The notes below the pieces were generated by a model, which did no database searches, was not told the DNA's origin, and saw only the letters and a program-made list of their open reading frames with translations. Shown piece by piece: positions 2,232 through 63,870 of a DNA stretch of 64,000 nucleotides. Each line of letters opens with the position of its first letter. The stretch's first letter is position 1. The DNA comes from an uncultured Actinomycetota bacterium (lineage in GTDB: Bacteria; Actinomycetota; Actinomycetes; Actinomycetales; Dermatophilaceae): positions 628 through 64,627 of the forward strand of contig CAWJME010000004.1 of NCBI GenBank assembly GCA_963843895.1. The letters run 5' to 3'. The position numbers and the translations under genes were made by a program.

Positions 2232-2239
2232 GCGAGCGG

Positions 2240-2255: not shown

Positions 2256-2257
2256 GC

Positions 2258-47155: not shown

Positions 47156-47815
47156 TCAGGGTGTGACGAGGCCGGCCTGGTAGGCCATCACCACGAGCTG
47201 GGCCCGATCTCGCGCACCCAGCTTCGCCATGGACCGGTTGACGTGGGTCTTGGCGGTCAGGGGCGACACGAACAGATCGGTCGCGATCTCGTCGTTGGTC
47301 AGCCCGCGGGCCACGAGCCTCACGACCTCGGTCTCCCGCTCGGTGAGCCCCTCCAGGGCGCCCGGACCGGCACTCGGGCCGGTGGGCACCGCGAGCATCC
47401 TCGAGATGAGGCTCCGGGTCGCCGAGGGGGAGAGCAGTGCCTCGCCGGCCGCCACGACCCGGATCGCCTCGAGCAGCGCCGTGGGCTCCACGCCCTTGCC
47501 CAGGAACCCGCTGGCGCCCGCCCGCAGCGCAGCCACGACGGCGTCGTCGGACTCGAACGTCGTCAGCACGAGCACGCGCACGTCGCGGAGGTCGGGGTCC
47601 GCGGTGATCAGCTCGGTCGCGGAGAGCCCGTCCGTTCCCGGCATCCGGATGTCCATGAGGACGACGTCGGGTCGCGTGTCCCGCGCGAGGGCCACCGCCT
47701 CGGCACCGTCGACCGCCAGAGCGACGACCTCCAGGTCTGCCGCCGAGCCGACGATCGCGGCGAACCCGGCCCGGATGAGGGCCTGGTCGTCGGCGATCAG
47801 GACACGGATGGTCAT
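47156..47815 (-). CDS. NarL/LuxR-family response regulator
   Basis: Track ORF. VLIADDQ, VVLMDIRMPG receiver motifs; C-terminal LTERETEVVRLVARGLTNDEIA HTH. Confidence 0.9.
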   Translation of the reverse strand: MTIRVLIADDQALIRAGFAAIVGSAADLEVVALAVDGAEAVALARDTRPDVVLMDIRMPGTDGLSATELITADPDLRDVRVLVLTTFESDDAVVAALRAGASGFLGKGVEPTALLEAIRVVAAGEALLSPSATRSLISRMLAVPTGPSAGPGALEGLTERETEVVRLVARGLTNDEIATDLFVSPLTAKTHVNRSMAKLGARDRAQLVVMAYQAGLVTP

Positions 47816-48995
47816 GGGACCCGGACCGCGCGCTCGGGAACGACAGGGAGCTCGGCGTGCACCCCGAAGGCGCCGTCCCCGCGCGGGCCCACCTCGAGCG
47901 TTCCGCCGGCCGCGTTGACGCGCTCACGCATCCCCACCAGGCCGTGACCGGGCGCCCCGGTCGGCGTGGGCCCGAGCGGGTTGGTCACCTCGATCCGCAC
48001 GCCGTCATCACGGTGCGCGATCTCCACGACCGCCGAGCCGCTGCCGTGCTTGCGGGCGTTGGTCAACGCCTCCTGCACCAGCCGGTGGGCGGCGAGGTCG
48101 ACGACGGGTGGCAGAACCACCGGCGACCCGGAGACCCGGAGGGTGACCGCCAGCCCGGCGCGGCGGGCGTCGAGTACCAGCGCGTCCACACCGACCAGCC
48201 CGGGCGCCGGGTGGCGCTCATCCCCGGGGCCTCGCGCAGCACCCCGAGGATCGTCGACATCTCGGTGAGCACCGTCTGCCCCGCCTCACGGACGTGGTCG
48301 AGTGCCGCACGCGCCTGCTCGGGGTCGGCGTCGAGCAGGTGCCCCGCGGCGCCCGCCTGCACCGTCATGACCGCGATGTGGTGGGCGACGACGTCGTGCA
48401 GCTCGCGCGCGATGCGCACCCGCTCCTCGGCGACACGACGTTGGGCCTCCTCCTCACGCGTGGCCTCGGCCCGTGCGGCTCGGTCCCGGGCGGCGGCGAT
48501 GATGGCCCGCTGGCTGCGCACGGCGTCACCGACGGCCGCAGGCATCCCGCTCCACGCGAGAACGGCCCACGGTTCGGGACCGGTCCACGTCGCGTCGAGG
48601 GCGAGCACGACCGTGACGACGAGGACCGCGCCGCTGGCCACGGCGGCCAGGACGGCGGTGCGGCGCCGACGCAGCGAGGCCAGCGTGTAGAGGGCGACGA
48701 TCAGGGGCAGCACGGCAGGCGTCGGTCCCTCGCTGGAGACCAGGCCGAGGACAGCCAGCGCGAGGGTGGCCGCCCAGACCGCCTCCGGGTGGCGTCGCCG
48801 GACCACGAGCGCGGCACACCCGAGCACGACGGCCACCTTCGTGACTGCGTCGGGGATGTGGCCGCCATCGCGCCGGACGACGACCAGCAGGACGAGCAGG
48901 ACGAGCGCCAGCAGGGCGTCAGCGACGAGCGGGTGCTCCGTGAGCCAGACCGCGGGCGCCGGGCCGCTGGGGGTCTCGGGGCGCGGCGCGGTCAT
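47812..48995 (-). pseudogene. HisKA_3-type sensor histidine kinase interrupted by a 1-nt frameshift
   Basis: The N-terminal TM region plus ELHDVVAHH H-box lie in the frame of track ORF 48063..49241 (ATG 48995). The HATPase domain (VQEALTNARKHG, GHGLVGMRERV) is in the frame of track ORF 47812..48189. The frames join cleanly at the run CCCCGGGG (48221-48228) if one base is added. Confidence 0.7.
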
Positions 48996-49164
48996 GGCAC
49001 GACGGTAGCGCGGCGCGGATCGGCGGCTCACCGACCACGAGTGCGCGCGTGCAGATGTGACCCGCGTCCTTGTGGGGCCGCGCGGCGAGGGAGACGCTGG
49101 AGGCAGGACGCGGGTGGCCCGCCACCGCGACCGCGCGGTGGGTGTCTCCGGAGAGGACGAACCC

Positions 49165-50052
49165 ATGAACCAGGACATGCTCGCCAAGATCCGGACCGGC
49201 ACCGGCTTCATCGCCGCCCTGGACCAGAGCGGTGGCAGCACGCCGAAGGCCTTGGAGCGCTACGGGATCGCCGGGTCGGCGTACAGCGACGAGGCCGGCA
49301 TGTTCGACCTCATCCACCAGATGCGGTCCCGTGTCATCACGAGCCGGGTCTTCACCGGGGACCGCATCCTCGCCGCGATCCTCTTCGAGCAGACCATGGA
49401 CCGGGAGGTCGAGGGCCTGGGCTCGGCCGAGTACCTCTGGACCCGCAAGCGCATCGTCCCCTTCCTCAAGGTCGACAAGGGCCTCGAGGGCGAGGCGCAC
49501 GGCGTGAAGCTGATGAAGCCCATGCCGGACCTCGACGCGCTCCTGGAGCGCGCCCGGGGCCACGGCGTGTTCGGCACCAAGATGCGCTCGGTGGTCCGTA
49601 CGGCGGACCCCGCGGGGATCGAGGGCGTCGTCGCGCAGCAGTTCGACATCGCCCGGCGCATCCTGGCCGCCGGGCTCGTGCCGATCATCGAGCCCGAGGT
49701 CGACATCCACAACCCCCGGAAGGCCGCGGCGGAGCAGCTGCTCAAGGCGACGCTCCTCACCCACCTCGACCGACTGAGCGAGGGACAGGACGTCATGCTC
49801 AAGCTGACGCTGCCCGACGTGGACGGGGACCACCGGGAGCTCCTCGACCACCCACGGGTCCTGCGCGTCGCCGCGCTCTCGGGCGGCTACTCCCGAGGTA
49901 CGGCGGTCGACCTCCTCGCACGGAACCCGGGAGTCATCGCCAGCTTCTCGCGCGCCCTCACCGAAGGCCTCACCGCCCAGATGTCCGACACGGAGTTCGA
50001 CGAGGCGCTCGACGCCTCCGTGGCGGCCATCTACGCGGCCTCCGCGACGTGA
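49165..50052 (+). CDS. fda: class I fructose-bisphosphate aldolase
   Basis: ATG 49165 is preceded by GGAGAGGA, in track ORF 49057..50052. GFIAALDQSGGSTPKAL, ILFEQTMDREVEG, VPFLKVDKGL, IIEPEV and LSGGYSR. Confidence 0.9.
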   Translation: MNQDMLAKIRTGTGFIAALDQSGGSTPKALERYGIAGSAYSDEAGMFDLIHQMRSRVITSRVFTGDRILAAILFEQTMDREVEGLGSAEYLWTRKRIVPFLKVDKGLEGEAHGVKLMKPMPDLDALLERARGHGVFGTKMRSVVRTADPAGIEGVVAQQFDIARRILAAGLVPIIEPEVDIHNPRKAAAEQLLKATLLTHLDRLSEGQDVMLKLTLPDVDGDHRELLDHPRVLRVAALSGGYSRGTAVDLLARNPGVIASFSRALTEGLTAQMSDTEFDEALDASVAAIYAASAT

Positions 50053-50069: not shown

Positions 50070-51953
50070 TCACACGACGACGCGCTCCCGCTCCGGTGCC
50101 GGCTCGACCTCGTCGGCCCACGCACCCGCCCGCGCCGCGGCGCGGCGCCGACGGACACCGACGGCCAGGGCCACGAGGGCGAGCCCGAGGAGGGCGGCGG
50201 AGAGTCCCTGCAGCAGCCCGCCGACGGGGGTGCGTGAGACCACCGTCGCCGGACGGGGGGCCGCGCCGCCCACCACCCAGGTGACCGACGACACGGCGTC
50301 GGGCAGACCGGGACGGACGACGACGACCCGCAGCGGGGTGGGTCCGGGGGTCTCGACGGTGAGCGGCACGCTCCAGCCCTCACCGGGCAGTCGCTGCCCG
50401 TCGCTCACCGTCACCGCGCCGCGGGCGTCGACCCGCTCCACCCGCACCGCGACCGGCCGCGGCGGCGCGGGACGGCGGCTGTCGAGCACGTCGACGACCG
50501 CGATGTTGACGCCGGGACGGTTCGGCTGCACCACGGTGTGCTCCGCGAGGTCGGCCGCGGTCGCGTCGACGGCGACGGACGGCGTGACGTCCCCGGCACT
50601 CGACAGCTCCGGCGCCGTCGCCGGCTGACCGCTCGACAGCAGGGCCGACATCGCCAGCGCCGCGACGAGCAGGCCGGACTCGGCAGCCACCGACCGCGGC
50701 GGACGAACCGCCGTCTCGGCCCGGGCCCAGCGGACGTGGCGCAGACCCAGGAGGGCGGCCACCGCGACCAGGGCCACCTTGAGGAGGAGGGTCCGCCCGT
50801 AGGTGGTGAGCAGGACGGCGTCGACCGAGGCCACGGCGGAGCTCGCGAGGAAGACCCCGGTCGTCGCCATGACGGCCACGGCGACGGCGGCCGGGCGGGC
50901 GAAGGACCGGATGACGGCACGGACCGCGGCGCGCGACACCTGTCCTCGGCGGGCGCCGGACGCGAGGACCACGGCCATCGCGACGCCGCCGAGCCAGGTG
51001 GTGGTCGCGAGCACGTGGAGGACGTCGGCGGCCAGCCGCACCGGCCCCACGGGGCTCACGGCGGCGTGCCCGAGGAGCGCCGTGCCGGTCCCCGCGGCGA
51101 CCGCACCGACGAGGACCAGGGGCCGTGACACCCGCCACCCCGCGCGGGCCAGGCCGAGGGCGACGGCGGCGAGGCCGACGGCACGCAGCCCCACCCGCAG
51201 GGCGTACCACCCGGTGAGCACCGTGCCGAGTGGCACGTCCGACCCGAGGGCCTGGACGAGGGGCAGGGCGACGCAGGCGAGCGTGGCGAGCACGACGACC
51301 GTGAGCACGGGACGGCGGGAGCGGGCGAGGACCGCGGTCGCGCCGGGTGACCCGGCCGCGAGCCGCACGACCAGCGCGTGACCGAGCCCGCCGGCGACGC
51401 CGAGCAGCGCGAGCCAGCGCAGGAAGGCCTGGTCGAGGGCGGCCGGCGCCTCGGTCCGTCCGGCGGGGGCGACCTGCTGTCCCACCCCGAACACGACGAC
51501 GGCCGTCGTCCGGTGCATGTCGTCGGCCGACAGGGTGTCGACGGTGAGCCGGTAGCTGCCGACGGGGAGGGTGCCGAGCACGGGGACGACGAGCGAGACC
51601 GGCGGCTCCTCCTCGACGACCGGGGCCGGGACGAGGCTCGGGGCGGTGGCCGGCTCCGGAGCGGGATCGGTGAGCTGCGCGGGTGCGTCCTCGGCCCGCG
51701 GGGCTCCGAGCGCCACCGGGGTGCCGTCGTGCCCGACGAGGACGACGTGGGTCGCGGGGAGGACGACGGCCTCGCTGAGCCGGAGGTGCAGCTCGTGCGG
51801 CGCCGAGGCGAGGACGCTGCCGTCGGCCGGGTCGCTCGAGACGAGGAAGGCGTGGGCCCGGGCCGCCCCGGCCGCGAGGACCGGGGCCGCGAGGACGAGC
51901 AGGGCCACCGCGCAGACCCGGAGGGCCCGGGCAGCGGGGGCGTGGCTCGTCAC
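50070..51953 (-). CDS. CopC-CopD fusion protein (YcnJ-like) with an extra C-terminal extracytoplasmic domain and terminal TM helix
   Basis: Track ORF. A signal peptide ends ...ARA, followed by HAFLVSSDPADGSVL (CopC N-terminal His motif). Then about 8 TM helices of CopD type, a soluble beta-rich segment and a final TM. The GTG start overlaps the upstream stop (GTGA). Confidence 0.8.
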   Translation of the reverse strand: MTSHAPAARALRVCAVALLVLAAPVLAAGAARAHAFLVSSDPADGSVLASAPHELHLRLSEAVVLPATHVVLVGHDGTPVALGAPRAEDAPAQLTDPAPEPATAPSLVPAPVVEEEPPVSLVVPVLGTLPVGSYRLTVDTLSADDMHRTTAVVVFGVGQQVAPAGRTEAPAALDQAFLRWLALLGVAGGLGHALVVRLAAGSPGATAVLARSRRPVLTVVVLATLACVALPLVQALGSDVPLGTVLTGWYALRVGLRAVGLAAVALGLARAGWRVSRPLVLVGAVAAGTGTALLGHAAVSPVGPVRLAADVLHVLATTTWLGGVAMAVVLASGARRGQVSRAAVRAVIRSFARPAAVAVAVMATTGVFLASSAVASVDAVLLTTYGRTLLLKVALVAVAALLGLRHVRWARAETAVRPPRSVAAESGLLVAALAMSALLSSGQPATAPELSSAGDVTPSVAVDATAADLAEHTVVQPNRPGVNIAVVDVLDSRRPAPPRPVAVRVERVDARGAVTVSDGQRLPGEGWSVPLTVETPGPTPLRVVVVRPGLPDAVSSVTWVVGGAAPRPATVVSRTPVGGLLQGLSAALLGLALVALAVGVRRRRAAARAGAWADEVEPAPERERVVV

Positions 51954-52507
51954 AGGACCGGGATGTGCGCCAGGGTCTGCCCCCCGTAGGACAGTGACGC
52001 GAACTCGTCCGCCTGGACCACTCCGCCGTTGCGGTAGACGAAGTAGTACGTCTGGCCCGCCGTCATCGTGTGCCCCTTCTTCATGAGCGCGACCGTGTTC
52101 GTCCGGGCGTCCCGCACCTCACTGCTCAGCACCGGGGGGTGCGTCGTGTCGGACTGGAAGGTCGTCGCGCGGGCGGGGTCGAGGCACAGGTAGTTCACCT
52201 GCACCAGGCCGCCGTCGCCGACGAGCGCGACGCGGGTGATCCGGATGCCGAGCTGGCTCTCCATGACGGCGTTGGTCGGCATCGGCGCGCCCGCGCTGGA
52301 CGGGTGCCGGGTGGCGAGGGCGACCGCGCCGGCGACGGCCAGCGCGAGGACGACCACGGCGACGACGATCCGTCGCCCGAGCGAGGGCGTCCGCCCAGGC
52401 ACCGGCCGGGCGTGCGTCGTGCCCCCGGCCCCTCCCGGCGGGAGGTCGGAGCCTCCCGCCGGAGCGGTCGATGCGCGGGTCGTCAGCGTGCTGCTCACCG
52501 GAGCCAC
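51950..52507 (-). CDS. membrane-anchored hypothetical protein (cytoplasmic tail, one TM, about 115-aa extracytoplasmic domain)
   Basis: Track ORF. GTG 52507 lies 1 nt after the upstream stop. TM helix IVVAVVVLALAVAGAVALA. Met/His patch ALMKKGHTM. No family recognised. Confidence 0.55.
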   Translation of the reverse strand: MAPVSSTLTTRASTAPAGGSDLPPGGAGGTTHARPVPGRTPSLGRRIVVAVVVLALAVAGAVALATRHPSSAGAPMPTNAVMESQLGIRITRVALVGDGGLVQVNYLCLDPARATTFQSDTTHPPVLSSEVRDARTNTVALMKKGHTMTAGQTYYFVYRNGGVVQADEFASLSYGGQTLAHIPVL

Positions 52508-52508
52508 C

Positions 52509-55500
52509 TCACCAGCGCTGGAGCTGGTCGAGGGACACGTACCCGGTGGGTCGGACGGCCGTGGACTGGTCGACCAGCCCCACCCGGATGCTCGTCGTGC
52601 CGGCGGCTGGTGTGCCGTTGCCGAGCTGCTGGACCCCGAGCAGGTTGCCGGTGGAGCCGTACACCGCCAGGGTCAGCTGCCCGGCTGTGCTGTCCATCGT
52701 CACCCGCACGGTGACGATGGCGGTGTTCCCGATGGTGATCGGGGTTCCCGTCGGGGTGGTCTGGCCCGCGAGCACCGGGGTGAGGGCCAGGCCCGCACCG
52801 CTGCCCGTCGCGACGACCGAGAACCGCGCCGTCGTGCCGGCGTAGCCCTGGTAGATCGTCACCCGCGTGCCGGTGGGTACGGCCAGGGAGTCACCACGCA
52901 GGGCGAACTGGGCGTTGGCCACCACGGTGGCCGGCGAGGCCGTCGGGCTGGTGAGGTACGCCGGGTTGGTGCCCCCGGTGGCCCGCACGTAGCCGGTGCC
53001 GACCATCCGAGGCTGCGTCGTCGACCGGGCGATGCCGTTGCCGCTCGTCTTGGCCCAGCCGGTCGGCGGGAAGGTGTTCCCGTCGAAGGTCTGGGTGTCG
53101 ACGGGCGTCGCGCTCACCGTCGCGGTGCCCGAGGCGGCCACGCTCCAGTTGCCGGCCTTGTCCTGCAGCCGCAGGTTGACCGTCGTCGAGCCGAGCAGGA
53201 GCTGGGCCCTGGGGATGGTGAACGTCGCCTGCGTCCCGGTGTAGGACACCGTGACCTTGGTGGCCCGCCCGACGCCCGGGTCGACGCTGCCGAACCACAC
53301 CTCCCCGCCGGTGATGTCGCTGGTCTGGGTGCCGCTGAGGGCCGCCGTGACCGTCACGGTGGCCGGGGACGACCCGGCGGTCGGCGTGACCGTGAGCGAG
53401 GAGATCACCGGCTTGACGGTGTCGACGACGAACGTGGCCAGGGTCGTCGCGCCCCAGTTGCCGGCCGCGTCCTGGCCGTAGACGTAGAGCTGGTGATCAC
53501 CCTGGGTCGAGGCCCAGGTCTTGACCTGGGAGAGGGGGACGAGTCCGTAGACGTTCTCGGTGCTCGAGTCGAAGGCCCCGTCGGTCGCCTGCAGCGTCAT
53601 GCCCTTGTGGGTGGCGGTCGGTGCGGCCGGGTCGTCGAAGAAGGCGACGGCCTGGACGATCCGGCTCGAGACGGTGCTGTTGTTCTGGCTGTCCTGGACG
53701 ATCGCGGTGACCTTGGCGAAGCCGGGGTTCGACGGGTCGCTGATGGCGCCGTTGAGGGCACTCGGGCTCATCGCCGAGGCGATGGTCACGGGGCCGACGA
53801 GGTCGACCGTGAACGGCACGTCGAGCAGGGGACCCCACAGGCCCTGGGTGTCCTTGCTGTGGACGAACACGTGGTGGTTGCCCTCGGCGAGCCCGGCGGC
53901 CGGCGGGATGGTCGCCGTCTCGGACGTGACGGTGCGTCCGGCCACGAAGGCGACCGGGGTGCCGGTGCCGTTCGTCGGGTCGGTGACGAAGGTCCCGTCC
54001 GGTTTGGTCGCCGGGTCGAGGAAGTACTCCGCACCGGTGATCTGCCCGCCGAACCCGCTGTCGTTGCCGGTGGCGGTGAGCTTCATCGACGTCGAGGCGT
54101 TGACCGGGTTGGGGGTGATGGCGCCGCTCGTGGTCAGCGGTCCCCGCTTCGGCACGTTGACGGCCACCGAGCCGAGCGTGCCCCACTTGTTGGCGTGGTC
54201 GCGTGCGCGGACGTAGATGACGTGGCGGCCGGCGGCGAAGCTCGGGTCGGCGAGCACCGAGGCCGGGATGGTCGCCGTGGCTCCGGTGACCGTCACGGCG
54301 CCGAAGCCGCCCGTCATCGCGATGCCGTTGCCGGGACCGATCGTCGTCGCGTCGTCGATGACGACCTCTGCGGCGTCGACGGTGCTGCCGCCGGTCGTGG
54401 CGTCGCTGAGGTCGGCCGTCACCGTCATCGGCGTCGTCGCGTCGGACGGGTTCGGATCCGCCGTCACGTGCGTCACGGCCGGACCGACGGTGTCGCCGAG
54501 GACCGGGGGCGCGTTGGTGTCGAGGAAGGTGAGCATGCCGCCGAACGCCGTCTGCGTCGGGTCGGCCGTGGTCATCGCGTTGTTGTCCAGGTGCGTCCCG
54601 GACTCGACGAGCGCGAGCTTGGCGTCGGCGCCGGTCGGGACCGTCACGATGGTGTCGGCCGTCTCACCGGGGGTGAGCGGCTCGACGACCTCGCCCACGG
54701 GGTAGGTGAGTGGGTGGCCGTCTCGGGCGACGGCGACCTGGTCCGAGCCGAGGACGCTCATCGCGTGCGGCAGCGCGCCGAGGTCGGCGTAGCGCAGCAG
54801 CAGGCGGTGGCCCTGGTCGGTGGGGATGACGTCGGTCTCGGGGAACGCCTTGCCGTTGACCAGCCGGTACCGGGGGTTGAAGCCCCGCATGTCGAAGCCC
54901 GTGGGGTCGGCGTTGAGGGCGGGGTCGATCTCGCCGAGGGCCACGACCGACTCGTCCACGAACGCCGATGCCGGGGTGCCGTAGGCGGTCGTCCCGTCCG
55001 CCGGACGCACGATGAGCACGCCGGCGAGGCCCATGGCGACCTGCCGAGCGCCGTCGGCGGTGTGCCCGGCCTCGTAGACGAAGGTGCCGGGGCGGGAGGC
55101 GTGCAGCGTGAAGGTACCGGTCTGTCCGGCGTCGATGCCGGTCGTTGCCGTGGAGGCGTCGAAGCCATGCGTGAGGTCGGCGGCGGGGATGCCGGGAACG
55201 GCGAGCGACAGGGGTGCCGCGAGCTCGTTGTGCACGATGAGGTCCACCGTCGAGCCCTGGTCGACCACGAGGAGGGGGCCGGGCAGCGTCGGGTTGCCGG
55301 TCGGCGCACCGGACCAGCCCCAGATGGGGATCTTCCGGGTGACGACGGTCACCGTCCCGGCGCGTGCGTAGAGGTCACAGGTGGCGGTCGTCCCGGTGGT
55401 CGAGCACCCCTGGGCGCCGAGGTGTCCGCTGCCCGCAGCCGCGAGGGCCGGCGCGGCGGCGCCCGCGGCGGCCGTCGTCGTGCGGGCGAGGTGCCCGGTG

Positions 55501-55610
55501 AGGGTCGCCGCGGCGGCGGGTGAGGTCGAGGCCAGCCCGGCGGCGAGCAGCACCGCCGTCGCCAGTGCCGCCACTCGGGAGGCACCCATGGCTCGTGTTC
55601 GCGTGGTCAT
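52509..55610 (-). CDS. secreted multicopper-oxidase-like protein lacking copper ligands, followed by tandem Ig-like modules and a C-terminal beta-rich domain (1,033 aa)
   Basis: ATG 55610 in track ORF 52509..55895. Signal peptide. The two cupredoxin-like domains are clearly paralogous to the 55631..56974 product (LPGPLLVVDQGSTVDLIVHNEL, GLAGVLIVRPA, PRYRLVNGKAF, FGGMLTF). Confidence 0.75.
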   Translation of the reverse strand: MTTRTRAMGASRVAALATAVLLAAGLASTSPAAAATLTGHLARTTTAAAGAAAPALAAAGSGHLGAQGCSTTGTTATCDLYARAGTVTVVTRKIPIWGWSGAPTGNPTLPGPLLVVDQGSTVDLIVHNELAAPLSLAVPGIPAADLTHGFDASTATTGIDAGQTGTFTLHASRPGTFVYEAGHTADGARQVAMGLAGVLIVRPADGTTAYGTPASAFVDESVVALGEIDPALNADPTGFDMRGFNPRYRLVNGKAFPETDVIPTDQGHRLLLRYADLGALPHAMSVLGSDQVAVARDGHPLTYPVGEVVEPLTPGETADTIVTVPTGADAKLALVESGTHLDNNAMTTADPTQTAFGGMLTFLDTNAPPVLGDTVGPAVTHVTADPNPSDATTPMTVTADLSDATTGGSTVDAAEVVIDDATTIGPGNGIAMTGGFGAVTVTGATATIPASVLADPSFAAGRHVIYVRARDHANKWGTLGSVAVNVPKRGPLTTSGAITPNPVNASTSMKLTATGNDSGFGGQITGAEYFLDPATKPDGTFVTDPTNGTGTPVAFVAGRTVTSETATIPPAAGLAEGNHHVFVHSKDTQGLWGPLLDVPFTVDLVGPVTIASAMSPSALNGAISDPSNPGFAKVTAIVQDSQNNSTVSSRIVQAVAFFDDPAAPTATHKGMTLQATDGAFDSSTENVYGLVPLSQVKTWASTQGDHQLYVYGQDAAGNWGATTLATFVVDTVKPVISSLTVTPTAGSSPATVTVTAALSGTQTSDITGGEVWFGSVDPGVGRATKVTVSYTGTQATFTIPRAQLLLGSTTVNLRLQDKAGNWSVAASGTATVSATPVDTQTFDGNTFPPTGWAKTSGNGIARSTTQPRMVGTGYVRATGGTNPAYLTSPTASPATVVANAQFALRGDSLAVPTGTRVTIYQGYAGTTARFSVVATGSGAGLALTPVLAGQTTPTGTPITIGNTAIVTVRVTMDSTAGQLTLAVYGSTGNLLGVQQLGNGTPAAGTTSIRVGLVDQSTAVRPTGYVSLDQLQRW

Positions 55611-55630
55611 CGTCAGTCGTCCCCTCGGGC

Positions 55631-56974
55631 TCACGTGCAGCCACCCGGAGGGTCGATGCGGTACACCGTCATCATCCCGCCGAAGGTTGCGCCGTAGTTG
55701 GTGGCCTGCTGCAGTGCGTGGCTGTGGGCGATGTGGTAGTACTCGCCGCACTGGTTGTTGTCGGTGATGTAGGTGGGCACGTTGCCCTTGACCCCGAGGT
55801 AGGGGCTCTCGCTGAACCAGGTGTCGGTGCCGACGAGGAGCTGGTCGGTGATGGCCGGCAGCCGGGTCGGGATCTGGTTCGTGGTGGGGTTCCACTGGTC
55901 CACGTCGGTCCAGACCATGGTCGCGTCGAGGCTCTGGCCGGGCTGCACGTCGAGGTCGAACTTGTTGTAGGACAGGTCCTCACCGTTCCCACCGCGCGTC
56001 GGGTGGCCGTCGATGTTGACGATGCGCTCGTCGCTGCCGTGCGGGTGGAACGGGTAGTTCTCCGTCCCGGCGTTGAGGTAGCGGATCAGCGCGGGCCGAG
56101 GGGTGTCCGCCGGGGACGGCTGGATGTGCACCAGCGCCCCGTAGGGCTGGGCCGGCAGCCACGACGCGTGGTTGGGAGCCAGCGTGTCCGGCATGCTCCG
56201 GCCGTTCATCATGAAGTACCGCGGCTTGTACGAGGCCCAGTCGGGGGTCTCGCCGCGCTCCACCGCGAGGTGGATGTCGGGGTCGATCTCGGAGAGCACG
56301 AAGAGGTACTCGTGGTTCGTGTCGAAGGTCGTCCCGCTGTCGGTCACCTGGTCGGCGTGACCCGCCGGGCGGACCACGAGCGCCCCGAACAGACCCATCT
56401 GGGTCTGCTTGTTGACGTCGGTGCCGGAGGAGTAGAGGTAGGTGCCGGGCGCGCCGGCCGTGAAGGTGTAGGTCATCGACCCGTTCGTCGCCTCGGCGGG
56501 CTGGACGAGCGAGGTCAGCGTGCCGGTGGAGGAGAACTGGGGCTGCGCGGGGTTGCCCGCGGCCTTCACCCCCGTCTGGCCGTGGAAGACGATGGACACC
56601 GGCTCGGTCAGCGTGTTGTGCAGGATCACCGTCACCGCCTCGCCGGAGTTCACGCACAGTGTCGGGCCGGGCAGCTGGAAGCCGTGTCCCGCCCCCTCGT
56701 TCGCGAAGCCCCACGAATAGATCGAGTTGCCGTCCGGGGTCGAGATGTCCCCCGTCCTGGTGCCGAGCGTGAACGTGTTGTTCGTCGCGGTGTCGCAGGC
56801 GATGCCCTCGGCGGGGTAGTCGCCGGCGTGGGCCGCGGTCTGCGCGGTCACGGCGACCCCGAGCGCGAGCACCGCGGCGGCGCCGCCGGCGAGGAGCCGC
56901 CGGCCGGTCCGGGTGCGGGGGGCCCGCGGGAGCCGCCGGGACTCCCCGGGCGGGGTGGCAGAGTGCCTTCTCAT
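55631..56974 (-). CDS. Tat-signal two-domain multicopper oxidase family protein; His ligands only in the C-terminal domain (HPH and HSH), no type-1 Cys
   Basis: Track ORF, 447 aa. RRLLAGGAAA twin-arginine motif. FHPHG (His310/312) and HIAHSH (His414/417/419). The N-terminal domain has VSIVFHGQTG in place of HWHG. Confidence 0.8.
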   Translation of the reverse strand: MRRHSATPPGESRRLPRAPRTRTGRRLLAGGAAAVLALGVAVTAQTAAHAGDYPAEGIACDTATNNTFTLGTRTGDISTPDGNSIYSWGFANEGAGHGFQLPGPTLCVNSGEAVTVILHNTLTEPVSIVFHGQTGVKAAGNPAQPQFSSTGTLTSLVQPAEATNGSMTYTFTAGAPGTYLYSSGTDVNKQTQMGLFGALVVRPAGHADQVTDSGTTFDTNHEYLFVLSEIDPDIHLAVERGETPDWASYKPRYFMMNGRSMPDTLAPNHASWLPAQPYGALVHIQPSPADTPRPALIRYLNAGTENYPFHPHGSDERIVNIDGHPTRGGNGEDLSYNKFDLDVQPGQSLDATMVWTDVDQWNPTTNQIPTRLPAITDQLLVGTDTWFSESPYLGVKGNVPTYITDNNQCGEYYHIAHSHALQQATNYGATFGGMMTVYRIDPPGGCT

Positions 56975-56990
56975 CGTCGTGTCTCCCCAC

Positions 56991-58307
56991 TCACAGGTTC
57001 GGTTGGGACTGGGCAGGGAGGGTGCCCGGCGGGACGACGCTGATCTTCGTCATCATCCCGCCGTAGCCGGTGCCTCCGCCGTTGTTGAGGAAGCTGTACC
57101 GGCGGTCGTAGAACAGGTACTCGCCGACCGCCGGAGCGGTGAAGATGACGTCCCGGCTCTCACCCGGGCCGATGTCCACCGTGTTCGTCGTGAGGTAGTT
57201 CGACACCGCTCCGTTGCGCAGCAGGCTCGCGTCCTCGGCGACGACGGTGAGGTCGATGTCGTCGCAGGTGAGCGAGTGGTCCTGGAAGCCCAGGCTCGCC
57301 AGGCGCACGAGCACCTTCTCGCCGGGCATGCACGTGATGTGCGACGAGTTCGGCTGGTACTGCAGGCGGCCGCTCACCGTGTCGAGGTCGGGACGGTACT
57401 GCAGACCGCCGTCGGCGCGGGTCACCGAGCTCGCACCGTTCGGGGCGTAGGTGTCGGGGTAGGCGCGGCCGTTCATCAGCCAGAACGAGGCGTCGAAGTC
57501 GGTCCAGTCACTGACCTGGATGTGTGCGTCGCGGTAGTGGGCCGCCGACCACAGCTCGGTGACGATGATGCCGAACTCGCGGTCGTAGCGGGTCGACCCG
57601 TCGCCGTCGTTGTAGGCGTACGTCGTCCCGACGGGGTCGGTGCCGACCGGGTGGGCGTTCTGCCTCGGTCGCACCCACACCATTCCCGACATGCCCATCT
57701 GCACGTGCTCGACGTCCTCGAAGTGGCAGTGGTACATGTACGTCCCGGCGTCGTGCGGCTTGTAGAAGTAGTCGAACCGGCGGCCCACGGGCACCGAGAG
57801 CGACAGCTCGGGGACGCCGTCGAAGAGGGGGATGGCGTTCTGGAAGCCGTGCCAGTGCATGGTGTGGCCGTCGAAGAGGTCGGGCCGCTGCGAGAGGCCG
57901 AGGTTGTACAGGCTCAGCGTGATCTCGTCCTCCTCGTCGAAGACGAGGATCGGGGCCGAGATCTGGGCCTTGCCGCGCTGGGCGGCCAGGTCCGCGTCGC
58001 TGAGGCCGGAGACGTCCCGGAACCCGAACACGTAGGTGTTGAAACCGGGCGGGGCGAGGGGGTCGGGGAAGAAGGGCGGGTCGGCCGGCGCCGTGTCCGG
58101 CATCGAGACCCAGCCGTCCGTGCCGGCGAGGGCGAGGGACTTCGTCGGCCCGGTCCCGACCTTCGCCGCCTGCACGACGGCACCGCGAGCGGTCTGCGGG
58201 GCCACGACCCGGGCGGCCGCGACGAGGCCTCCGGCTCCGAGGGCACCCAGCAGGACGCGACGACGGTCCACGGTGAATGTGCTCATGGTGTGCTCCTGCT
58301 GCGTCAT
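56991..58307 (-). CDS. Tat-signal two-domain multicopper oxidase family protein; type-1 site and half of the trinuclear-cluster ligands in the N-terminal domain only
   Basis: ATG 58307 overlaps the upstream stop (ATGA). An alternative ATG at 58286 is preceded by CAGGAG. DRRRVLLGALGAGG Tat motif. GHTMHWHG and YHCHFEDVEHVQMGM. Lies in track ORF 56991..59096. Confidence 0.8.
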   Translation of the reverse strand: MTQQEHTMSTFTVDRRRVLLGALGAGGLVAAARVVAPQTARGAVVQAAKVGTGPTKSLALAGTDGWVSMPDTAPADPPFFPDPLAPPGFNTYVFGFRDVSGLSDADLAAQRGKAQISAPILVFDEEDEITLSLYNLGLSQRPDLFDGHTMHWHGFQNAIPLFDGVPELSLSVPVGRRFDYFYKPHDAGTYMYHCHFEDVEHVQMGMSGMVWVRPRQNAHPVGTDPVGTTYAYNDGDGSTRYDREFGIIVTELWSAAHYRDAHIQVSDWTDFDASFWLMNGRAYPDTYAPNGASSVTRADGGLQYRPDLDTVSGRLQYQPNSSHITCMPGEKVLVRLASLGFQDHSLTCDDIDLTVVAEDASLLRNGAVSNYLTTNTVDIGPGESRDVIFTAPAVGEYLFYDRRYSFLNNGGGTGYGGMMTKISVVPPGTLPAQSQPNL

Positions 58308-61300
58308 GGGGTGGCCTGGGCGGCGCCGGCGTCGTACCGGGTTCCGGTGGGTCGGGGGGCTCCGTGCAGGTCCGTCGGGGGAGCGGTGACGAACACGGGG
58401 CTGGTCCCGTAGGCGACCGCCATCCGCTGTGTCCCGATGCCGATGGCCGGGGACCCCGGCGCGAGGTCGACGTTCCCCAGGAGGCTGTACGGCAGCACGG
58501 GGGTGACGATCGCGGCTTGTCGGAACGCGGGGAACTGCCGCGAGGCGAGGACGTTCACGGCGATCTGGAAGTCCTGGCGGACGCCCACCGCGTTGACCGA
58601 GTCGGGCCCCTGGACGTTGCCCGAGCCGACCGTGTCCGTCGCGTTCTGGTACCACGTGCTGTTCATCTGCAGCTGCAGCCCGTGGGGGTTGTCGGCGACT
58701 CCGACGTCCCACCGGTTGGCGTCGGCATCGGTGATGCCGCTCTCGAGGCCGCCGTAGTAGGTACCGGCGTAGTTGTCCGAGAAGACGTTGTCGAACATCG
58801 TCGGGCTGGCCACGGCGGTGCCGTCGTGCAGCATCGTCGCGAAGCCGGGCTGGCTCGCGAGCCGGGCGATGAGCGGGTCGCTCAGGGTCCCGGTCGAGAG
58901 GCCGGCCGGTGCCGGGAGGCCGTTGCTCGTCAGGGCTGTCGCCGTCGTGATGTTGCGGACGACGGTGTTGTCGACGATGTTCACGAAGGCCGCGTCGTCG
59001 AGCGCGATGCCGCCACCCTCGTGGGCCGACACGTTGTTCGCGATGTCGTTGTTCGTGATGCCGATCGTGTCGGTGACGACCTGGTTCGCGGGGCACGTGG
59101 TGACACCGCGTCGCGTGGTGCAGTTCGGGGTGGCGACGTGCGAGCCGGACGTCTGGAGCAGCCGGATCCCGCCGCCGTCGTCGTTCGCGAGGTTGGCCTG
59201 GATGACGTTGGCGTCGATGGAGACCGGACCGCTGCCGGCGCTCAGCGCGTCGGGGGTGGCGGGCAGCTCACCGGCGACCATGATGGCGCCGCCCTCGTCG
59301 TAGGACTGGTTGAACCAGATCCGGTTGTGGTCGATGGAGTTCTTCGCACCGAACGTCGCGTTCGTGTTCTGGTAGCCGAAGGACGTGATCGCGCCGCCGT
59401 ACTCGGAGGAGTGGTTGCCGCAGATGGCGTTGTGGTCGACCGAATACCCGTCGGACCCGGTGAAGAGCCCGATGCCGCCCGCGAGGTTGGTGCCACCGTT
59501 GTCGCGGATCTGGTCGTGCGAGATCACCGCGCCGTAGTTCTGGTTGTTCCCGACGTACGGCGTCCCGATCCGGATGGCGCCGCCGAACGAGCCGCTGTTG
59601 CCGTCGAAGACGTCGTTGGTCAGGTGCAGGCCCTGGACCTGCTGGTGGGCGTAGACTCCGCCGCCCTGGGTGACGAGCGAGCCTCCGGCGCCGACCGGGG
59701 TCGAGACGGCCCCGGTGACCGCGTTGGCGGCCGTGGCGATGTTGGCCTGCGAGCCGTTGCGGATGCGCAGGCCGTCGAGCGCGACCGGCCAGACCTGGTT
59801 GGGCGACCCCGTCGCCGGCGGCTGGTGCGTCCCGGCCAGCGGCGCGAGGACGGTGACGTCCGCCGCGTCGGGGACCTCGGCCAGTCCTCGGTAGGCCTGG
59901 CGGTTCACCGCCGCGAGCCAGTTCGTGCCGCTCGGGAGGTCGAGGTCGAACCCGGTGCCGTCGATGATCGACCCGGCGACGAAGGTGCCGGCGTCGTCGA
60001 AGCCACCGGGCCCCACGCCCTGGATGCGCACCTGGTTGTGGACGACGATGTTCTCGTTCCAGTCACCCTGCGGGTTGCTCGCGGTCTGGGTGTTCGGCCA
60101 GACGACCACCGCGTCGTACTGGCGGTCGGCGGTGGGCCGGGCTGCGTCGAGTGCCGCCTGCACCGTCTTGTAGGCCTTCGTCGGACCGACCTCGTAGAGC
60201 CTGGGGTTGTTCTGCGTCGCCCCGGTGCCGGTGGTGTTGAGCGCGAGCAGCGACAGCGTGTTGTACGCCGCGGTCCCCGACGAGCTCTTCAGGGTCAGCT
60301 GGAGCGCGCCGGCGAGCTTCTGGTTGGCACCGTACGTCGCGGGCACCGTGAAGACGATCTTCCGGGGGCTCCACGACGTGACCGTCGCGGGGACCTCGGG
60401 CATGGAGGTGACGAGGGGGTCCTTGAGGGTGAGCGTGCCCTTCGTCGTCCCGAAGCCGTACCCGGTGAGGGTCACCGACCGGTTGGCGCCGGTGGTGCCG
60501 AGCACGTAGGGCGTGCTCACCGACAGCAGCTGGGGCGTGGTGTCCGGGAGGTTGCACACGGTGTTGTCGGCCACCGCGCCGTCCGGGGTGAGGACCGTCG
60601 CCGCCGCCTGGGTCGGCGCCTGGTCGGTCACCGTGTAGAGGCCCGGCCAGCCCTGGAAGTTGGCCGCGATGGTCCGGAACCTCGAGTTGTAGTCGGCGTT
60701 CAGCGCGCCCGGCGCACCGGGGTCGTTGCCCACCGTTCGGTACATGTTCGGGCACGGACCCGCGGGGACCGGACAGTTGTAGGTGTCGGTCGAGGGCATG
60801 AGCGCCTCGTACATCCCGTTGAAGTCGGTGTGCGCGGTGTAGTCGAGCCGCCCGGCCCAGTCGTAGAAGCCGACGGGGACGAAGGGCAGGCCCTGGGCCT
60901 CGCCGTAGCCGATCGAGCGGGTGTCGAGGGTGAGCCCGAGGTCGTTGATCGTCAGGCCCCAGAAGTGGGTCGGGACCGGGACCTCGGTGAAGAGGTTGAA
61001 GTTCGGCGCCACGGTCTGGCCGGAGCGCACCGTCACGAGCTTGTCGGCGCACGACGGCATGTCGTAGCCCTCGAACGGTGAGCCACCGGCGGCGTTGAAG
61101 TCCGGGTTGTAGGTACCGGGGACGGGGTCCCTCGGGTCGTCGAGCGGCAGGCTGCGCACGTGGACGGTGTGCAGCGGGCCGACGCAGGAGGAGATGATGC
61201 CGGCCTGCTGCGACGGCGGCTGCGAGGGGGGAGTGGGGGTGGCGGACGGCGGGTCGGCCGGGTTGTCGGCAGCCGCCTGCGTGGACGGCGGGAAGTTCTC

Positions 61301-63760
61301 CTGCGGCAGGTAGGTGTCACCGGTGAAGACGTTGACGTCCTCCTCGGAGGTCACCTTGTACATCGGGCGGTCGCCGACCGGGGTCCTGGGGATGTCGACG
61401 CTCACGATGTAGTCGCCGGCGGCCATCCCGCTGAACCCGTAGTTGCCGTTGACCGACTGCGCGCCCGAGGTGTCGTTGACGCCGGCCTGGAAGCCCATCA
61501 TCGGCGACTCGACGCACGCCTGGTTGGCGTCCACCCCGAACTCCGGGAGGGCCTGCTGGATGCTGGAGTCGAGGACCGACCCGTCCCACTGCCGGCCGGT
61601 GCACCCGCGGGGGGCGCCCCAGGTCTCGGAGGTGTAGGCGTCGGTGACCTCGGGGCCCTTGACGAACGCACCGCGTTGCGGGTCGGGGTTGGTCGCGCCG
61701 TTCACCGTCAGCGGCACGATCTCCTTGCCCTGCCGGCACTCGTTGGCGACGTCGACGGCGTAGGTGTCCGAGGTCTTGTCCGTGACCGCGCACGGCGTCG
61801 AGGTGAAGAGGTGGACGGTCACGCCGGGGATGCCGGGCTGGTAGGCCTCGCTCGCCGCGTCGGCGGCGTCGAGCTCGTTGCGGGTCGTGTCGTAGCTGAT
61901 CGTCGCCGCGATACCGCCGTTCTCGGTCTGGTCGTACGGCCGCACGCCCCAGTCGACGGTGCCGTGGAGCCCGATGATCGGCAGCACGTTGAGGTCGACC
62001 ATCTGGCCGAGCTGCGTGGTCGGCGTGGGGTCGTTGTCGCCCTGCCACGTGACGCCGGTCGTCGCGTAGCGGGTGTTGAAGGCCTCGAGGACCAGGTACT
62101 TGGCCATCGGGTAGCCCTCACGGATGTCGAACTCGCCCGCGTCGTTCGTCGTCACGGTGTTCGTCGCCTGGTCCATGAGTGTGTTGTCGCGCTCGCGCAG
62201 GGTGAGGGCGAAGCTCGGCACGCCCTGCTCGCCCGGGTCCCGCACGCCGTTGCCGTTGTCGTCGATGAAGACGTGGCCCGAGAAGTGCGAGAACCAGCCG
62301 ACGAGCATCTGCTGCCCGACGTCGGTGTAGCCGCCCGAGCCGCTGTGCGCCGCCGCGTCGACCTCCGCGTTGAAGCTCATGATGATGTAGTCCTGGTCGT
62401 CGTCCCAGAGGGTGACCTGGTAGCTGCCGTCGGCGACGCCGTCGATGGAGAACGTGCCGTCGGAGCGGGCCTGCGCGAGGTACACCTCCTGGTCGCCGTT
62501 GTTCAGGTCGGACAGTGCGACCCAGACGTTCTTGAGGCGGGCGCCGATCTTCGTCCCGGCGACGCCCTCGGGCCCGACGACCCCGTTCTGGCCGCCGATG
62601 TAGGGCAGGCCCTGGACGACGACGCCCTTGATGCCGCCCGGCCGGGTCGTGTCCGTCGCCGACGGGGCGAGGGCCATCGACTTCGTGAAGCCGAACTGGG
62701 TGGCCGGCACGGGCTCCTGCCCGCGCAGCTGCTCGGTGTCGAGGCCGGTGTCGCCCTCCTGGACCCAGATGTCGTGGTCGTGCCCGCCCTCGAGGGTGGT
62801 CGTCTGCACCCAGCGCCGGCCGCCGGTGAGGGCGGGGGCGGCGACCGTGGCGGCATAGCGGTTCGGGCCGAGGTTCGGGATCCTGATGACGCCGTGGGAG
62901 TCGCTGTCGCAGCCCGGAGCCTTGGTCGTGTCGACGACCGGCTTGTTGTTCGCGTCGAAGACGATCGGGCTGCCGGGGTCCGCGGGTGCGGTGTGGACGT
63001 AGTTCGTGCACAGCGCGTTCCCGTAGTAGTCGACGCTCACCGCGCCGAAGACGTCGGTGAGGTGGGCGCGGAAGTGGGACATGTCCACGCCGTTCTCGGC
63101 GTCGACCTCGTAGGTGCCGTCGACCGGCGCGTAGTCGTCGTAGACCTGGATCTGGATGGTCGCCAGCGGTAGGGGGGTCGGGTTCAGCCCGACGCTCAGG
63201 GTCTGGGTGGTGCCGTCGACGGTGAAGTGCGCGCCGTCGATCTTGTAGCCGGAGGCCTTGACCGAGATGAGGTACTTCCCACCGGGGAGGTCGAGGCTCT
63301 TGCCGGCCGCGAAGTCGCTCTGGTCGCCCTCCGCGATGATCGGGGCGAACCCGGACGTCGCCCGGGTGCTCGGCCACGGGCAGGTGTCGGCGAACGCGGG
63401 GTCGGTGGAGTGCGCCCCGGCGGCCGTCGAGGGGAGGCAGCTCGACAGGAGCGGGTCCTTGGCGGTGCCCGGGTTCCCGGTGTCGTCCGCGTTGATGATC
63501 CACTCGTAGCTCGTCACGGGGTCCCCGGCGTTCGGCTTCACCGCCTTCTTGGCCGGGTTGACGTCGCGCGCGCTGACGACGCCGAGCCGGATCGCCCCAG
63601 CGGCGTACGTCGGGGCCGTCCAGGCCGCCGGAGCGGCGGCCTGCACCGCTGCCCCCAGTGCGGATGCCCCGGCCGTACCCAGCACGGTGATCGGGACCAC
63701 GGCGACCGCCAGGACTGCTGCGAGCCGGCCGAGGGGAAGGATTCGTCGAGCCCTGCGCAT
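58304..63760 (-). CDS. giant secreted protein (1,818 aa): N-terminal Cna-B/SdrD-B/carboxypeptidase-regulatory-like beta-sandwich modules, Pro-rich linker, C-terminal right-handed parallel beta-helix region
   Basis: ATG 63760 is preceded by AGAGGGAG, in track ORF 58304..63856. Signal peptide MRRARRILPLGRLAAVLAVAVVPITVLG. FIDDNGNGVRDPGEQGV SdrD-B-like motif. Repeated GG(A/G)I(x)(x) PbH1-like turns in the last ~640 aa. Confidence 0.75.
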   Translation of the reverse strand: MRRARRILPLGRLAAVLAVAVVPITVLGTAGASALGAAVQAAAPAAWTAPTYAAGAIRLGVVSARDVNPAKKAVKPNAGDPVTSYEWIINADDTGNPGTAKDPLLSSCLPSTAAGAHSTDPAFADTCPWPSTRATSGFAPIIAEGDQSDFAAGKSLDLPGGKYLISVKASGYKIDGAHFTVDGTTQTLSVGLNPTPLPLATIQIQVYDDYAPVDGTYEVDAENGVDMSHFRAHLTDVFGAVSVDYYGNALCTNYVHTAPADPGSPIVFDANNKPVVDTTKAPGCDSDSHGVIRIPNLGPNRYAATVAAPALTGGRRWVQTTTLEGGHDHDIWVQEGDTGLDTEQLRGQEPVPATQFGFTKSMALAPSATDTTRPGGIKGVVVQGLPYIGGQNGVVGPEGVAGTKIGARLKNVWVALSDLNNGDQEVYLAQARSDGTFSIDGVADGSYQVTLWDDDQDYIIMSFNAEVDAAAHSGSGGYTDVGQQMLVGWFSHFSGHVFIDDNGNGVRDPGEQGVPSFALTLRERDNTLMDQATNTVTTNDAGEFDIREGYPMAKYLVLEAFNTRYATTGVTWQGDNDPTPTTQLGQMVDLNVLPIIGLHGTVDWGVRPYDQTENGGIAATISYDTTRNELDAADAASEAYQPGIPGVTVHLFTSTPCAVTDKTSDTYAVDVANECRQGKEIVPLTVNGATNPDPQRGAFVKGPEVTDAYTSETWGAPRGCTGRQWDGSVLDSSIQQALPEFGVDANQACVESPMMGFQAGVNDTSGAQSVNGNYGFSGMAAGDYIVSVDIPRTPVGDRPMYKVTSEEDVNVFTGDTYLPQENFPPSTQAAADNPADPPSATPTPPSQPPSQQAGIISSCVGPLHTVHVRSLPLDDPRDPVPGTYNPDFNAAGGSPFEGYDMPSCADKLVTVRSGQTVAPNFNLFTEVPVPTHFWGLTINDLGLTLDTRSIGYGEAQGLPFVPVGFYDWAGRLDYTAHTDFNGMYEALMPSTDTYNCPVPAGPCPNMYRTVGNDPGAPGALNADYNSRFRTIAANFQGWPGLYTVTDQAPTQAAATVLTPDGAVADNTVCNLPDTTPQLLSVSTPYVLGTTGANRSVTLTGYGFGTTKGTLTLKDPLVTSMPEVPATVTSWSPRKIVFTVPATYGANQKLAGALQLTLKSSSGTAAYNTLSLLALNTTGTGATQNNPRLYEVGPTKAYKTVQAALDAARPTADRQYDAVVVWPNTQTASNPQGDWNENIVVHNQVRIQGVGPGGFDDAGTFVAGSIIDGTGFDLDLPSGTNWLAAVNRQAYRGLAEVPDAADVTVLAPLAGTHQPPATGSPNQVWPVALDGLRIRNGSQANIATAANAVTGAVSTPVGAGGSLVTQGGGVYAHQQVQGLHLTNDVFDGNSGSFGGAIRIGTPYVGNNQNYGAVISHDQIRDNGGTNLAGGIGLFTGSDGYSVDHNAICGNHSSEYGGAITSFGYQNTNATFGAKNSIDHNRIWFNQSYDEGGAIMVAGELPATPDALSAGSGPVSIDANVIQANLANDDGGGIRLLQTSGSHVATPNCTTRRGVTTCPANQVVTDTIGITNNDIANNVSAHEGGGIALDDAAFVNIVDNTVVRNITTATALTSNGLPAPAGLSTGTLSDPLIARLASQPGFATMLHDGTAVASPTMFDNVFSDNYAGTYYGGLESGITDADANRWDVGVADNPHGLQLQMNSTWYQNATDTVGSGNVQGPDSVNAVGVRQDFQIAVNVLASRQFPAFRQAAIVTPVLPYSLLGNVDLAPGSPAIGIGTQRMAVAYGTSPVFVTAPPTDLHGAPRPTGTRYDAGAAQATP

Positions 63761-63870
63761 CTTGGATCTCCCTCTGCGACGACGGCATCGGCCACGTGAA
63801 TGGCCTCCACGGACCCTGCTCCGGGGAGTCGGCCGTCGAGGAGAAAGGTGGGCCATGGGTCAAGCCCCGG

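Follow-up and report, generated by a model that had tools for sequence, protein, structure and literature searches.

Two-domain laccases are homotrimers in which neighbouring molecules, one through its domain 2 and the other through its domain 1, enclose the type 2/type 3 (T2/T3) copper centre (PMC6650940). In the type C two-domain multicopper oxidases (MCOs), such as mgLAC (2ZWN) and the blue copper oxidase of Nitrosomonas europaea (3G5W), each chain consists of two cupredoxin domains with the blue, or type 1 (T1), copper in domain 1, and the cluster forms where this domain meets domain 2 of an adjacent chain; a single gene provides a homotrimer with three blue coppers and three clusters. The SLAC-type (type B) laccases of Streptomyces also form a six-cupredoxin ring from three chains, with interdomain T2/T3 centres (PMC6650940), and are homotrimers with T1 in domain 2 and three active interfaces. 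In ceruloplasmin, hephaestin and the bacterial six-domain MCOs, the six cupredoxin domains form a pseudo-threefold ring that has only one trinuclear cluster (TNC), ligands having been lost from the other interfaces (PMC3600357). By the standard account, a two-domain ancestor was triplicated to six domains, after which all but one cluster were lost (PMC3600357). Here we present an analysis of three consecutive genes, designated A, B and C, in a 64,000-nucleotide stretch of DNA (the window) from an uncultured member of the Dermatophilaceae (Actinomycetota; contig CAWJME010000004.1, positions 628 to 64,627). Each gene encodes a two-domain MCO-like unit; the ligands of one site are split over the products of A and B, and the third product has none.

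The best explanation for these genes is that a type C two-domain MCO is present here in three diverged copies, namely A, B and the N-terminal module of C. We propose that they are no longer homotrimers and would instead join their six cupredoxin domains into one mixed ring, with B-A-C as the cyclic order. The sole TNC would form where domain 2 of B meets domain 1 of A, with four histidines from each, and would be the site of O2 reduction; the single T1 copper, in domain 1 of A, would take electrons from the substrate and pass them to the cluster through a His-Cys-His bridge. The two remaining contacts, between domain 2 of A and domain 1 of C and between domain 2 of C and domain 1 of B, would be copper-free and held by conserved replacement residues, and ring and cluster would be completed outside the cytoplasm. 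We consider it highly probable that A and B share a cluster. On balance we favour an obligate heterotrimer, a B-A-C ring in which one interface alone is catalytic, set inside a conserved secreted module. C is rather likely to be the third member of this ring, although its membership is less secure than the pairing of A with B. The complex as a physical entity, the place of C in it and its assembly after export are what we infer from the observations given below.

The twelve canonical copper-ligand positions were located in alignments of the orthologues of A (51 sequences), B (66) and C (83). Domain 1 of A retains a complete T1 site (H148, C194, H201 and M206) together with four cluster histidines (H151, H153, H193 and H195), all of them invariant (51/51), and domain 2 of B retains four cluster histidines (H310, H312, H417 and H419), which are likewise invariant (66/66). 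The domain 1 motifs of A were present in all 120 database homologues of A, and the domain 2 motifs of B, FHPHG among them, in all 120 of B. Bar sporadic cases, the equivalent positions in domain 2 of A, domain 1 of B and both domains of C hold no His or Cys, and the HCH motif is absent among 86 C homologues. The T1 His, Cys and His positions are occupied by V/T, S/A and Q in B and C, which keep the Met position alone. Hence no single chain has all eight cluster histidines; there are four in A (domain 1), four in B (domain 2) and none in C, which gives one full set per A+B+C. The first-pass annotation of this DNA had claimed that only domain 1 of A and domain 2 of B keep copper ligands. The orthologue alignments bear this out with two refinements: B in the window has a stray histidine, His131 (56582-56584, in FHGQ), at a former domain 1 cluster position where three of the 66 orthologues have His and 58 have proline, and the first His of its 'YHIAHSH', found in only 31/66, is not a conserved ligand.

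Given the T2/T3 geometry of the two-domain laccases, this split of ligands means that a homotrimer of A, B or C alone would be unable to build a cluster. Domain 2 of one unit meets domain 1 of the next, so that an active contact between domain 2 of B and domain 1 of A would set the ring order as B-A-C. The idea of a ring whose four ligand-free domains make both non-catalytic contacts was already part of the first-pass annotation and is retained here; the order A-B-C that it gave for the ring is not.

All three open reading frames (ORFs) lie on the minus strand where they had first been placed, and every peptide quoted from them is present. The proposal that A, B and the N-terminal part of C (~375 residues) are paralogous two-cupredoxin proteins was upheld by Pfam, BLASTP and structure models alike. 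Pfam Cu-oxidase_3 matched A (E 8.8e-13), B (E 1.8e-12) and C (E 5.5e-10), and A also matched Cu-oxidase and Cu-oxidase_2. By BLASTP, B and residues 1-400 of C are 31% identical (E 8e-22), A and B 26% (E 3e-15), and A and C 22% (E 2e-8); these pairwise alignments are collinear through both domains, which marks the three as whole-gene duplicates. In phmmer searches the best PDB sequence match of A was 3G5W (E 9.5e-15), with 2ZWN also close, and that of C(1-400) was 2ZWN (E 5.6e-11), with both domains covered. B matched ascorbate oxidase 1AOZ best (3.4e-07), followed by 2ZWN (1.9e-05) and 3G5W (1.4e-04), and its tie to the type C enzymes is suggested by its AlphaFold2 (AF2) structure model, which has a predicted local distance difference test (pLDDT) score of 78.9 and finds its best matches in 2ZWN and 3G5W (target-normalised template modelling, TM, scores of 0.71-0.72). 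The AF2 model of C residues 61-375 (pLDDT 89.7, predicted TM score 0.89) has 2ZWN (TM 0.78) and 3G5W (0.75) as its top Foldseek matches, and by this model the N-terminal module of C is a genuine two-cupredoxin unit, a point on which the first-pass annotation had made its ring depend.

Where these genes bear names at all, they are called generically 'multicopper oxidase', 'multicopper oxidase domain-containing protein' or 'hypothetical protein'. Two other identities were considered. A NirK reading was set aside on both score and ligands: the NCBIfam model TIGR02376 gave 22.9-38 bits against a cut-off of 296.3, and the ligands follow the eight-histidine oxidase pattern and not a three-histidine T2 site. 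An FtsP/SufI identity for C looks improbable on score and ligand pattern; C lacks all copper ligands, reaches 16.7 bits against the FtsP model (cut-off 581) and has two domains, not three.

Linkage of the three genes was followed in 91 non-redundant loci from Actinomycetota, Chloroflexota, Bacillota and a 'Deltaproteobacteria' metagenome-assembled genome (MAG), a survey biased to loci retrievable with C or B as seed; denominators below are the loci with enough flanking sequence. C comes directly after B in 65/65 loci, B lies downstream of A in 51/51, and a large gene, designated BIG, precedes A in 46/46. Downstream of C, a gene for a small membrane protein (small) was found in 29 and a CopC-CopD fusion gene (CopCD) in 20 of 37 loci. 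The survey of triplet conservation that had been suggested at the outset thus shows the order A-B-C kept across several phyla in all informative loci, and no C homologue without A and B, the occurrence of which had been named as a ground for abandoning the ring, was found among loci with enough flank. With C as seed, a metagenome scan yielded 80 loci, 39-57% identical. When genomes were scanned with B, eight actinobacterial loci emerged; BIG-A-B-C-small is the order in each of them, CopCD is present in all but one, and a Kribbella locus reached via a B homologue has the same gene order. Distant C-like proteins led to BIG-A-B-C in a Caldilineaceae genome, the 'Deltaproteobacteria' MAG, an unassigned contig and a Firmicutes MAG, and these four loci share the ligand pattern of A domain 1 and B domain 2.

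In the Caldilineaceae locus (L011, 10001-12589) the gene call for the C-like protein comes to only 333 aa, without the FGGM strand that normally stands at the C-terminal end, and Ig-like (immunoglobulin-like) pieces lie downstream as separate small ORFs; this is either an assembly error or a genuinely split C.

Gene fusion provides independent evidence that B and C act together. No same-ORF fusion of A with B or of B with C occurs in the 91 fetched loci, but an exhaustive search with B against 1.84 billion cluster representatives identified two in-frame B~C fusions, P0325 (884 aa) and P0327 (1,156 aa), each with an intact B and a C-like module. They share a conserved basic linker domain of ~80 aa, to which P0327 adds several hundred residues of repeats; the whole linker is ~170 aa in P0325 and several hundred aa in P0327. 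The operon of P0325 reads BIG-A-[B~C]-small-CopCD, with the fusion at 1961-4615 of its locus (L096). Three further candidates, P0342, P0350 and P0407, were rejected as frameshift chimeras in which B is read out of frame into the signal peptide of C.

The B search also returned P0448 (745 aa), a member of a family distinct from A, B and C, in which a complete type C two-domain oxidase is followed by a second unit and a C-terminal single cupredoxin domain. Its second unit is B-like, with a dead domain 1 and a live domain 2, which indicates that partial ligand loss between tandem two-domain units arose more than once.

Rates of change were compared between domains in 46 complete triplets: pairwise distances were computed per domain, the trend common to the domains, taken as the mean over the four not in the pair, was subtracted, and the residuals were correlated. 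Domain pairs are written here as A1-B2 for domain 1 of A with domain 2 of B. The observed correlation was highest for A1-B2, the predicted active contact, at +0.67 (first of 15 domain pairs; permutation z 9.2), and this pair also came first inside the actinobacterial clade (+0.53) and inside the remaining clades (+0.70). B1-C2, another predicted contact, reached +0.34 (rank 3 overall), rising to +0.50 (rank 2 of 15) in the actinobacterial clade. The pairs expected of a reversed ring gave +0.22 (A2-B1), +0.12 (B2-C1) and -0.09 (A1-C2), and those within one chain (A1-A2, B1-B2 and C1-C2) 0.00 to +0.10. As a sequence-based measure, rate covariation supports the A-B contact strongly and the B-C contact moderately, and hardly addresses the contact of A with C.

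The positions that have lost their ligands are not drifting: they have conserved residues of their own, and those of C are under strong purifying selection. In domain 1 of C, E180-A181-G182 are kept in 80-81 and Q190 in 82 of the 83 orthologues, and in domain 2, H282 and L287 in 80-81/83. Domain 1 of B keeps S183 (62/66), G184 (66/66) and Q190 (65/66), and domain 2 of A keeps R402 (47/51).

A separate observation concerns the actinobacterial clade only, in which the copper-free A domain 2 / C domain 1 position has conserved H344, D349 and D401 on the side of A (about 57105-57278) and E180 and H183 on that of C (about 55062-55073). Other clades have Ala/Gln, Ala/Thr, Asn and Leu at these positions. 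Such a His/Asp/Glu set could make one of the 'dead' interfaces a mononuclear metal site of a new kind, although the pattern follows a split into two clades and has no statistical weight.

Several points weigh against the B-A-C ring. The complex is put forward ahead of a model or an experiment. The gene order A-B-C differs from the ring order that is needed, and the B~C fusions link domain 2 of B to domain 1 of C, which would not be neighbours in a B-A-C ring; the fusions fit that ring only because their linkers are long. The A2-C1 pair, a predicted contact, is undistinguished in its covariation (+0.24, against +0.22 for A2-B1 and +0.38 for A2-B2), and the A1-B2 signal could itself stem from a constraint shared by copper-binding domains instead of from contact. 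Residue co-changes at the dead interfaces amount to a two-clade split, actinobacterial against the rest, are inseparable from phylogeny and were therefore not counted as evidence. The export routes, described below, differ between A on one side and B and C on the other, which forces the ring to assemble after export, and we know of no described precedent for assembly of this sort among two-domain MCOs. Finally, the proposal made below for the substrate is a guess that has the chemistry of one loop as its only basis.

In the main alternative, A and B would build the single cluster and C would stand outside the ring, with another copy of A or B in the third place or with the A-B assembly left open. 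C would then be a separate, copper-free scaffold of cupredoxin fold that anchors or displays the oxidase or BIG, a use of the fold akin to that in FtsP/SufI. This arrangement would suit the covariation data, in which A1-B2 is by far the strongest signal and A2-C1 does not stand out; it would also suit the lower conservation of C (mean identity to the window ~50% per domain, compared with 56-68% for A and B) and its ~650-aa Ig-like tail, which is typical of surface scaffolds. We nevertheless regard it as unlikely, since C is always found alongside A and B (65/65 and 51/51 loci), is fused to B in one lineage, covaries with B at B1-C2 (including rank 2 of 15 in the actinobacterial clade) and is under strong purifying selection at its former ligand positions, and since one half-site would have no counterpart in a ring of A2B or AB2 composition.

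A more distant alternative is that there is no oxidase at all: A would be a T1-only electron carrier, the four histidines of B would bind another metal, or copper for storage or hand-over, C would be structural, and the set would handle or sequester copper together with CopCD. The CopC-CopD gene does adjoin in 20/37 loci, the oxidase activity is a prediction, and split export routes would be unremarkable for proteins that never assemble. However, the residues that have been kept are the eight canonical cluster histidines, in canonical motifs, with the His-Cys-His bridge, and they are invariant over several phyla; such invariance is hard to explain unless the electron path from T1 to the cluster has been retained. 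Also, the rate coupling of A1 with B2 exceeds any coupling within a chain. We consider this alternative very improbable. Decay, in which an ordinary two-domain laccase would have left B and/or C behind as degenerating copies or pseudogenes, or an artefact of ORF calling, might be suspected from the spurious long ORFs common in high-GC DNA and from the frameshift chimeras among database entries, but it is refuted by conservation and has next to no credibility: all three genes are intact with coding-type GC at third codon positions (GC3), A, B and C are 40-70% identical over ~90 loci and hundreds of database clusters, and the pattern is identical in four phyla.

Returning to the B-A-C ring, three features of its proposed subunits deserve description. 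The first is export: a strict twin-arginine translocation (TAT) motif is present in 94/100 homologues of A, in 0/116 of B and in 0/51 of C. A, B and C each have their own signal peptide, those of B and C being of the Sec type. With A leaving through TAT and B and C through Sec, any assembly would have to come after export. SLAC is exported by TAT, as A appears to be.

The second feature is an insertion of ~55 residues in domain 2 of B, just ahead of the second HxH motif. Few parts of B are as highly conserved (S388, S390, Y392, L393 and G394 are at least 90% conserved), yet residues 376-396 have pLDDT below 50 in the monomer model; the insertion is a candidate for a segment that becomes ordered upon contact with A. 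The third is the T1 loop of A, which is two residues longer than usual and carries an invariant acidic E-D-x-E beside the T1 His, with E154, D155 and E157 (mature numbering) kept across phyla. These acidic residues hint, rather doubtfully, at a metal ion, Fe(II), Mn(II) or Cu(I), as the substrate. Additionally, the tail of C, found in 69/73 loci, gave weak Big_13 and OmpL47-type matches and no PDB sequence match, and is probably a tether or scaffold for the enzyme.

In the best reading of the locus, the trio is part of a larger conserved secreted cell-surface module together with BIG, small and often CopCD. The coordinates of the first-pass annotation leave out the constant partners on either side, of 1,850 aa and 185 aa. 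Six closely packed genes on the minus strand (50070-63856) have the order BIG-A-B-C-small-CopCD (Table 1). BIG and A overlap by 4 nt at ATGA, the stop of small overlaps the start of CopCD by 4 nt, and the gaps are 16 nt between A and B, 20 nt between B and C and 1 nt between C and small. Shine-Dalgarno-like GGAG/GAGG sequences precede B and C, and the spacing as a whole looks like the pattern of an operon with coupled translation.

Table 1. Features of the BIG-A-B-C-small-CopCD locus; positions are those of the window
Feature	Position	Strand	Description
BIG	58304-63856	-	1,850 aa, secreted; beta-sandwich domains, then a beta-helix; always heads the module
A	56991-58307	-	438 aa, two-domain MCO-like subunit; sole T1 site and half of the TNC ligands
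TAT signal peptide of A (DRRRVLLG)	58179-58307	-	strict TAT motif
A domain 1 motif HTMHWH	57849-57866	-	T1 His148 and cluster His151, His153; invariant in 51/51 orthologues
A domain 1 motif HCHFEDVEHVQMGM	57690-57731	-	cluster His193, His195; T1 Cys194, His201, Met206; ligands invariant in 51/51
B	55631-56974	-	447 aa, two-domain MCO-like, Sec-type signal; domain 1 ligand-free, domain 2 with the other four cluster His
B domain 2 motif HPH (His310, His312)	56039-56047	-	invariant in 66/66 orthologues
B domain 2 motif HSH (His417, His419)	55718-55726	-	invariant in 66/66 orthologues
Insertion particular to B domain 2, residues ~355-410	55745-55912	-	conserved sequence, low model confidence
C, whole gene	52509-55610	-	1,033 aa
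C N-terminal module, residues 62-375	54486-55427	-	two cupredoxin domains without copper ligands
C tail, residues 376-1033	52509-54485	-	Ig-like repeats, then a C-terminal beta-rich domain
small	51950-52507	-	185 aa, single-pass membrane protein with an outer domain of ~115 aa
CopC-CopD fusion (CopCD)	50070-51953	-	627 aa, final gene of the packed run; Pfam CopC and CopD

BIG matches Pfam SdrD_B, CarboxypepD_reg and Chlam_PMP and the NCBIfam choice-of-anchor Q family. Its homologues, of 1,500-2,200 aa, are 36-40% identical across phyla in end-to-end alignments that span residues ~110-1847, and on these alignments BIG is best described as a single conserved orthologue and no generic adhesin. 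Among its 231 near-invariant columns there are ten cysteines and no His or Met. It has no PDB sequence match, and in Pfam and NCBIfam no catalytic domain is recognisable, the matches being confined to beta-sandwich and beta-helix families; BIG has the appearance of a core partner to the oxidase. In the small protein, whose ~115-aa outer domain is conserved, no His, Cys or Met is invariant; neither Pfam nor NCBIfam matches it, and the PDB gave a lone weak match (4DN7, E 0.0035). Haem motifs are absent from all six operon proteins, and sortase motifs from BIG, C and small. The CopC-CopD fusion is likely to serve in copper supply or handling.

The DNA of the window is high in GC (70-78%), its closest relatives being Phycicoccus-like genomes, and many spurious long ORFs arise in it. 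One of them is an alternative frame open from the end of B into C (52509-55895, minus strand), which produces false 'B-C fusions' in ORF lists. Beyond CopCD, a histidine kinase (47812-49241, minus strand) is seemingly split: HisKA_3 and DUF7134 fall in the ORF 48063-49241 and HATPase_c in an overlapping ORF, 47812-48189, in a different frame, owing to an assembly frameshift or to a pseudogene.

How this system stands to the described ones can now be considered. With the type C enzymes it shares fold and site chemistry, including blue copper in domain 1, as in A; it departs from them in that their eight cluster histidines reside in one chain. From the SLAC-type laccases it differs in the three points given at the outset, namely the homotrimer, T1 in domain 2 and three active interfaces. 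Ceruloplasmin-type oxidases have the ring and the single TNC proposed here, but they are single polypeptides with blue coppers in even-numbered domains, whereas here there are three chains (two in the B~C lineage) and a lone blue copper in a domain-1-type position. The six-domain oxidases surveyed in PMC3600357 carry blue copper in domain 2, 4 or 6. With its T1 site in domain 1, the A/B/C system is therefore a parallel solution to that of ceruloplasmin, and neither its ancestor nor of the same lineage; the view, expressed at first reading, of an evolutionary intermediate on the way to six-domain oxidases was too strong for a type C system of this kind.

Other assemblies offer partial likenesses. 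In activated factor VIII (A1 / A2 / A3-C1-C2), three two-cupredoxin chains form a pseudo-threefold ring and one of them bears C-terminal anchoring domains. This is a loose analogue, being eukaryotic, without oxidase function and made of chains that come from proteolysis of one precursor; a factor V-like protein, 4BXS, is among the PDB matches of B. The Bacillus Mnx complex (MnxG with MnxE/MnxF) is a bacterial MCO that is functional only in a multi-protein complex encoded by one operon; unlike A/B/C, its accessory subunits are small non-MCO proteins and its cluster lies within one chain. The two-domain MCO Nmar_1354 of Nitrosopumilus maritimus (PDB 9CCK) forms a trimer that has been called a 'heterotrimer' (PMC11761707). 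That alpha-alpha-alpha' assembly comes from one gene, its units differing by an extra cupredoxin domain, and unlike A/B/C it has the full set of ligands in all units. It was the one 'heterotrimer' met with in full-text literature searches, which returned no description of a heteromeric or split two-domain MCO with a cluster shared between gene products.

We regard the chances as evenly balanced for the widest form of the proposal, in which a TNC made from two gene products, in a ring closed by a third, copper-free paralogue, is ancient and present in several phyla and forms the catalytic core of an undescribed five-protein surface machine with a ~1,800-aa beta-helix protein, its dead interfaces having been re-purposed, for example as a substrate-metal site in Actinomycetota. 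The findings suggest that one cluster per six-domain ring was reached here by gene triplication without fusion. The B~C lineage would have been caught midway to fusion, which makes the order of duplication, site loss and fusion testable on living sequences. If true, nature would offer here a clean example of paralogous subunits that share out one active site between them, one exported by TAT and two by Sec, and such split export raises the question of how a copper cluster is assembled outside the cell. Any one of these genes expressed alone would probably yield an inactive protein. Furthermore, the constant presence of a giant conserved surface partner indicates that soil Actinomycetota, Chloroflexota and other phyla have an oxidative function outside the cell that has so far escaped notice.

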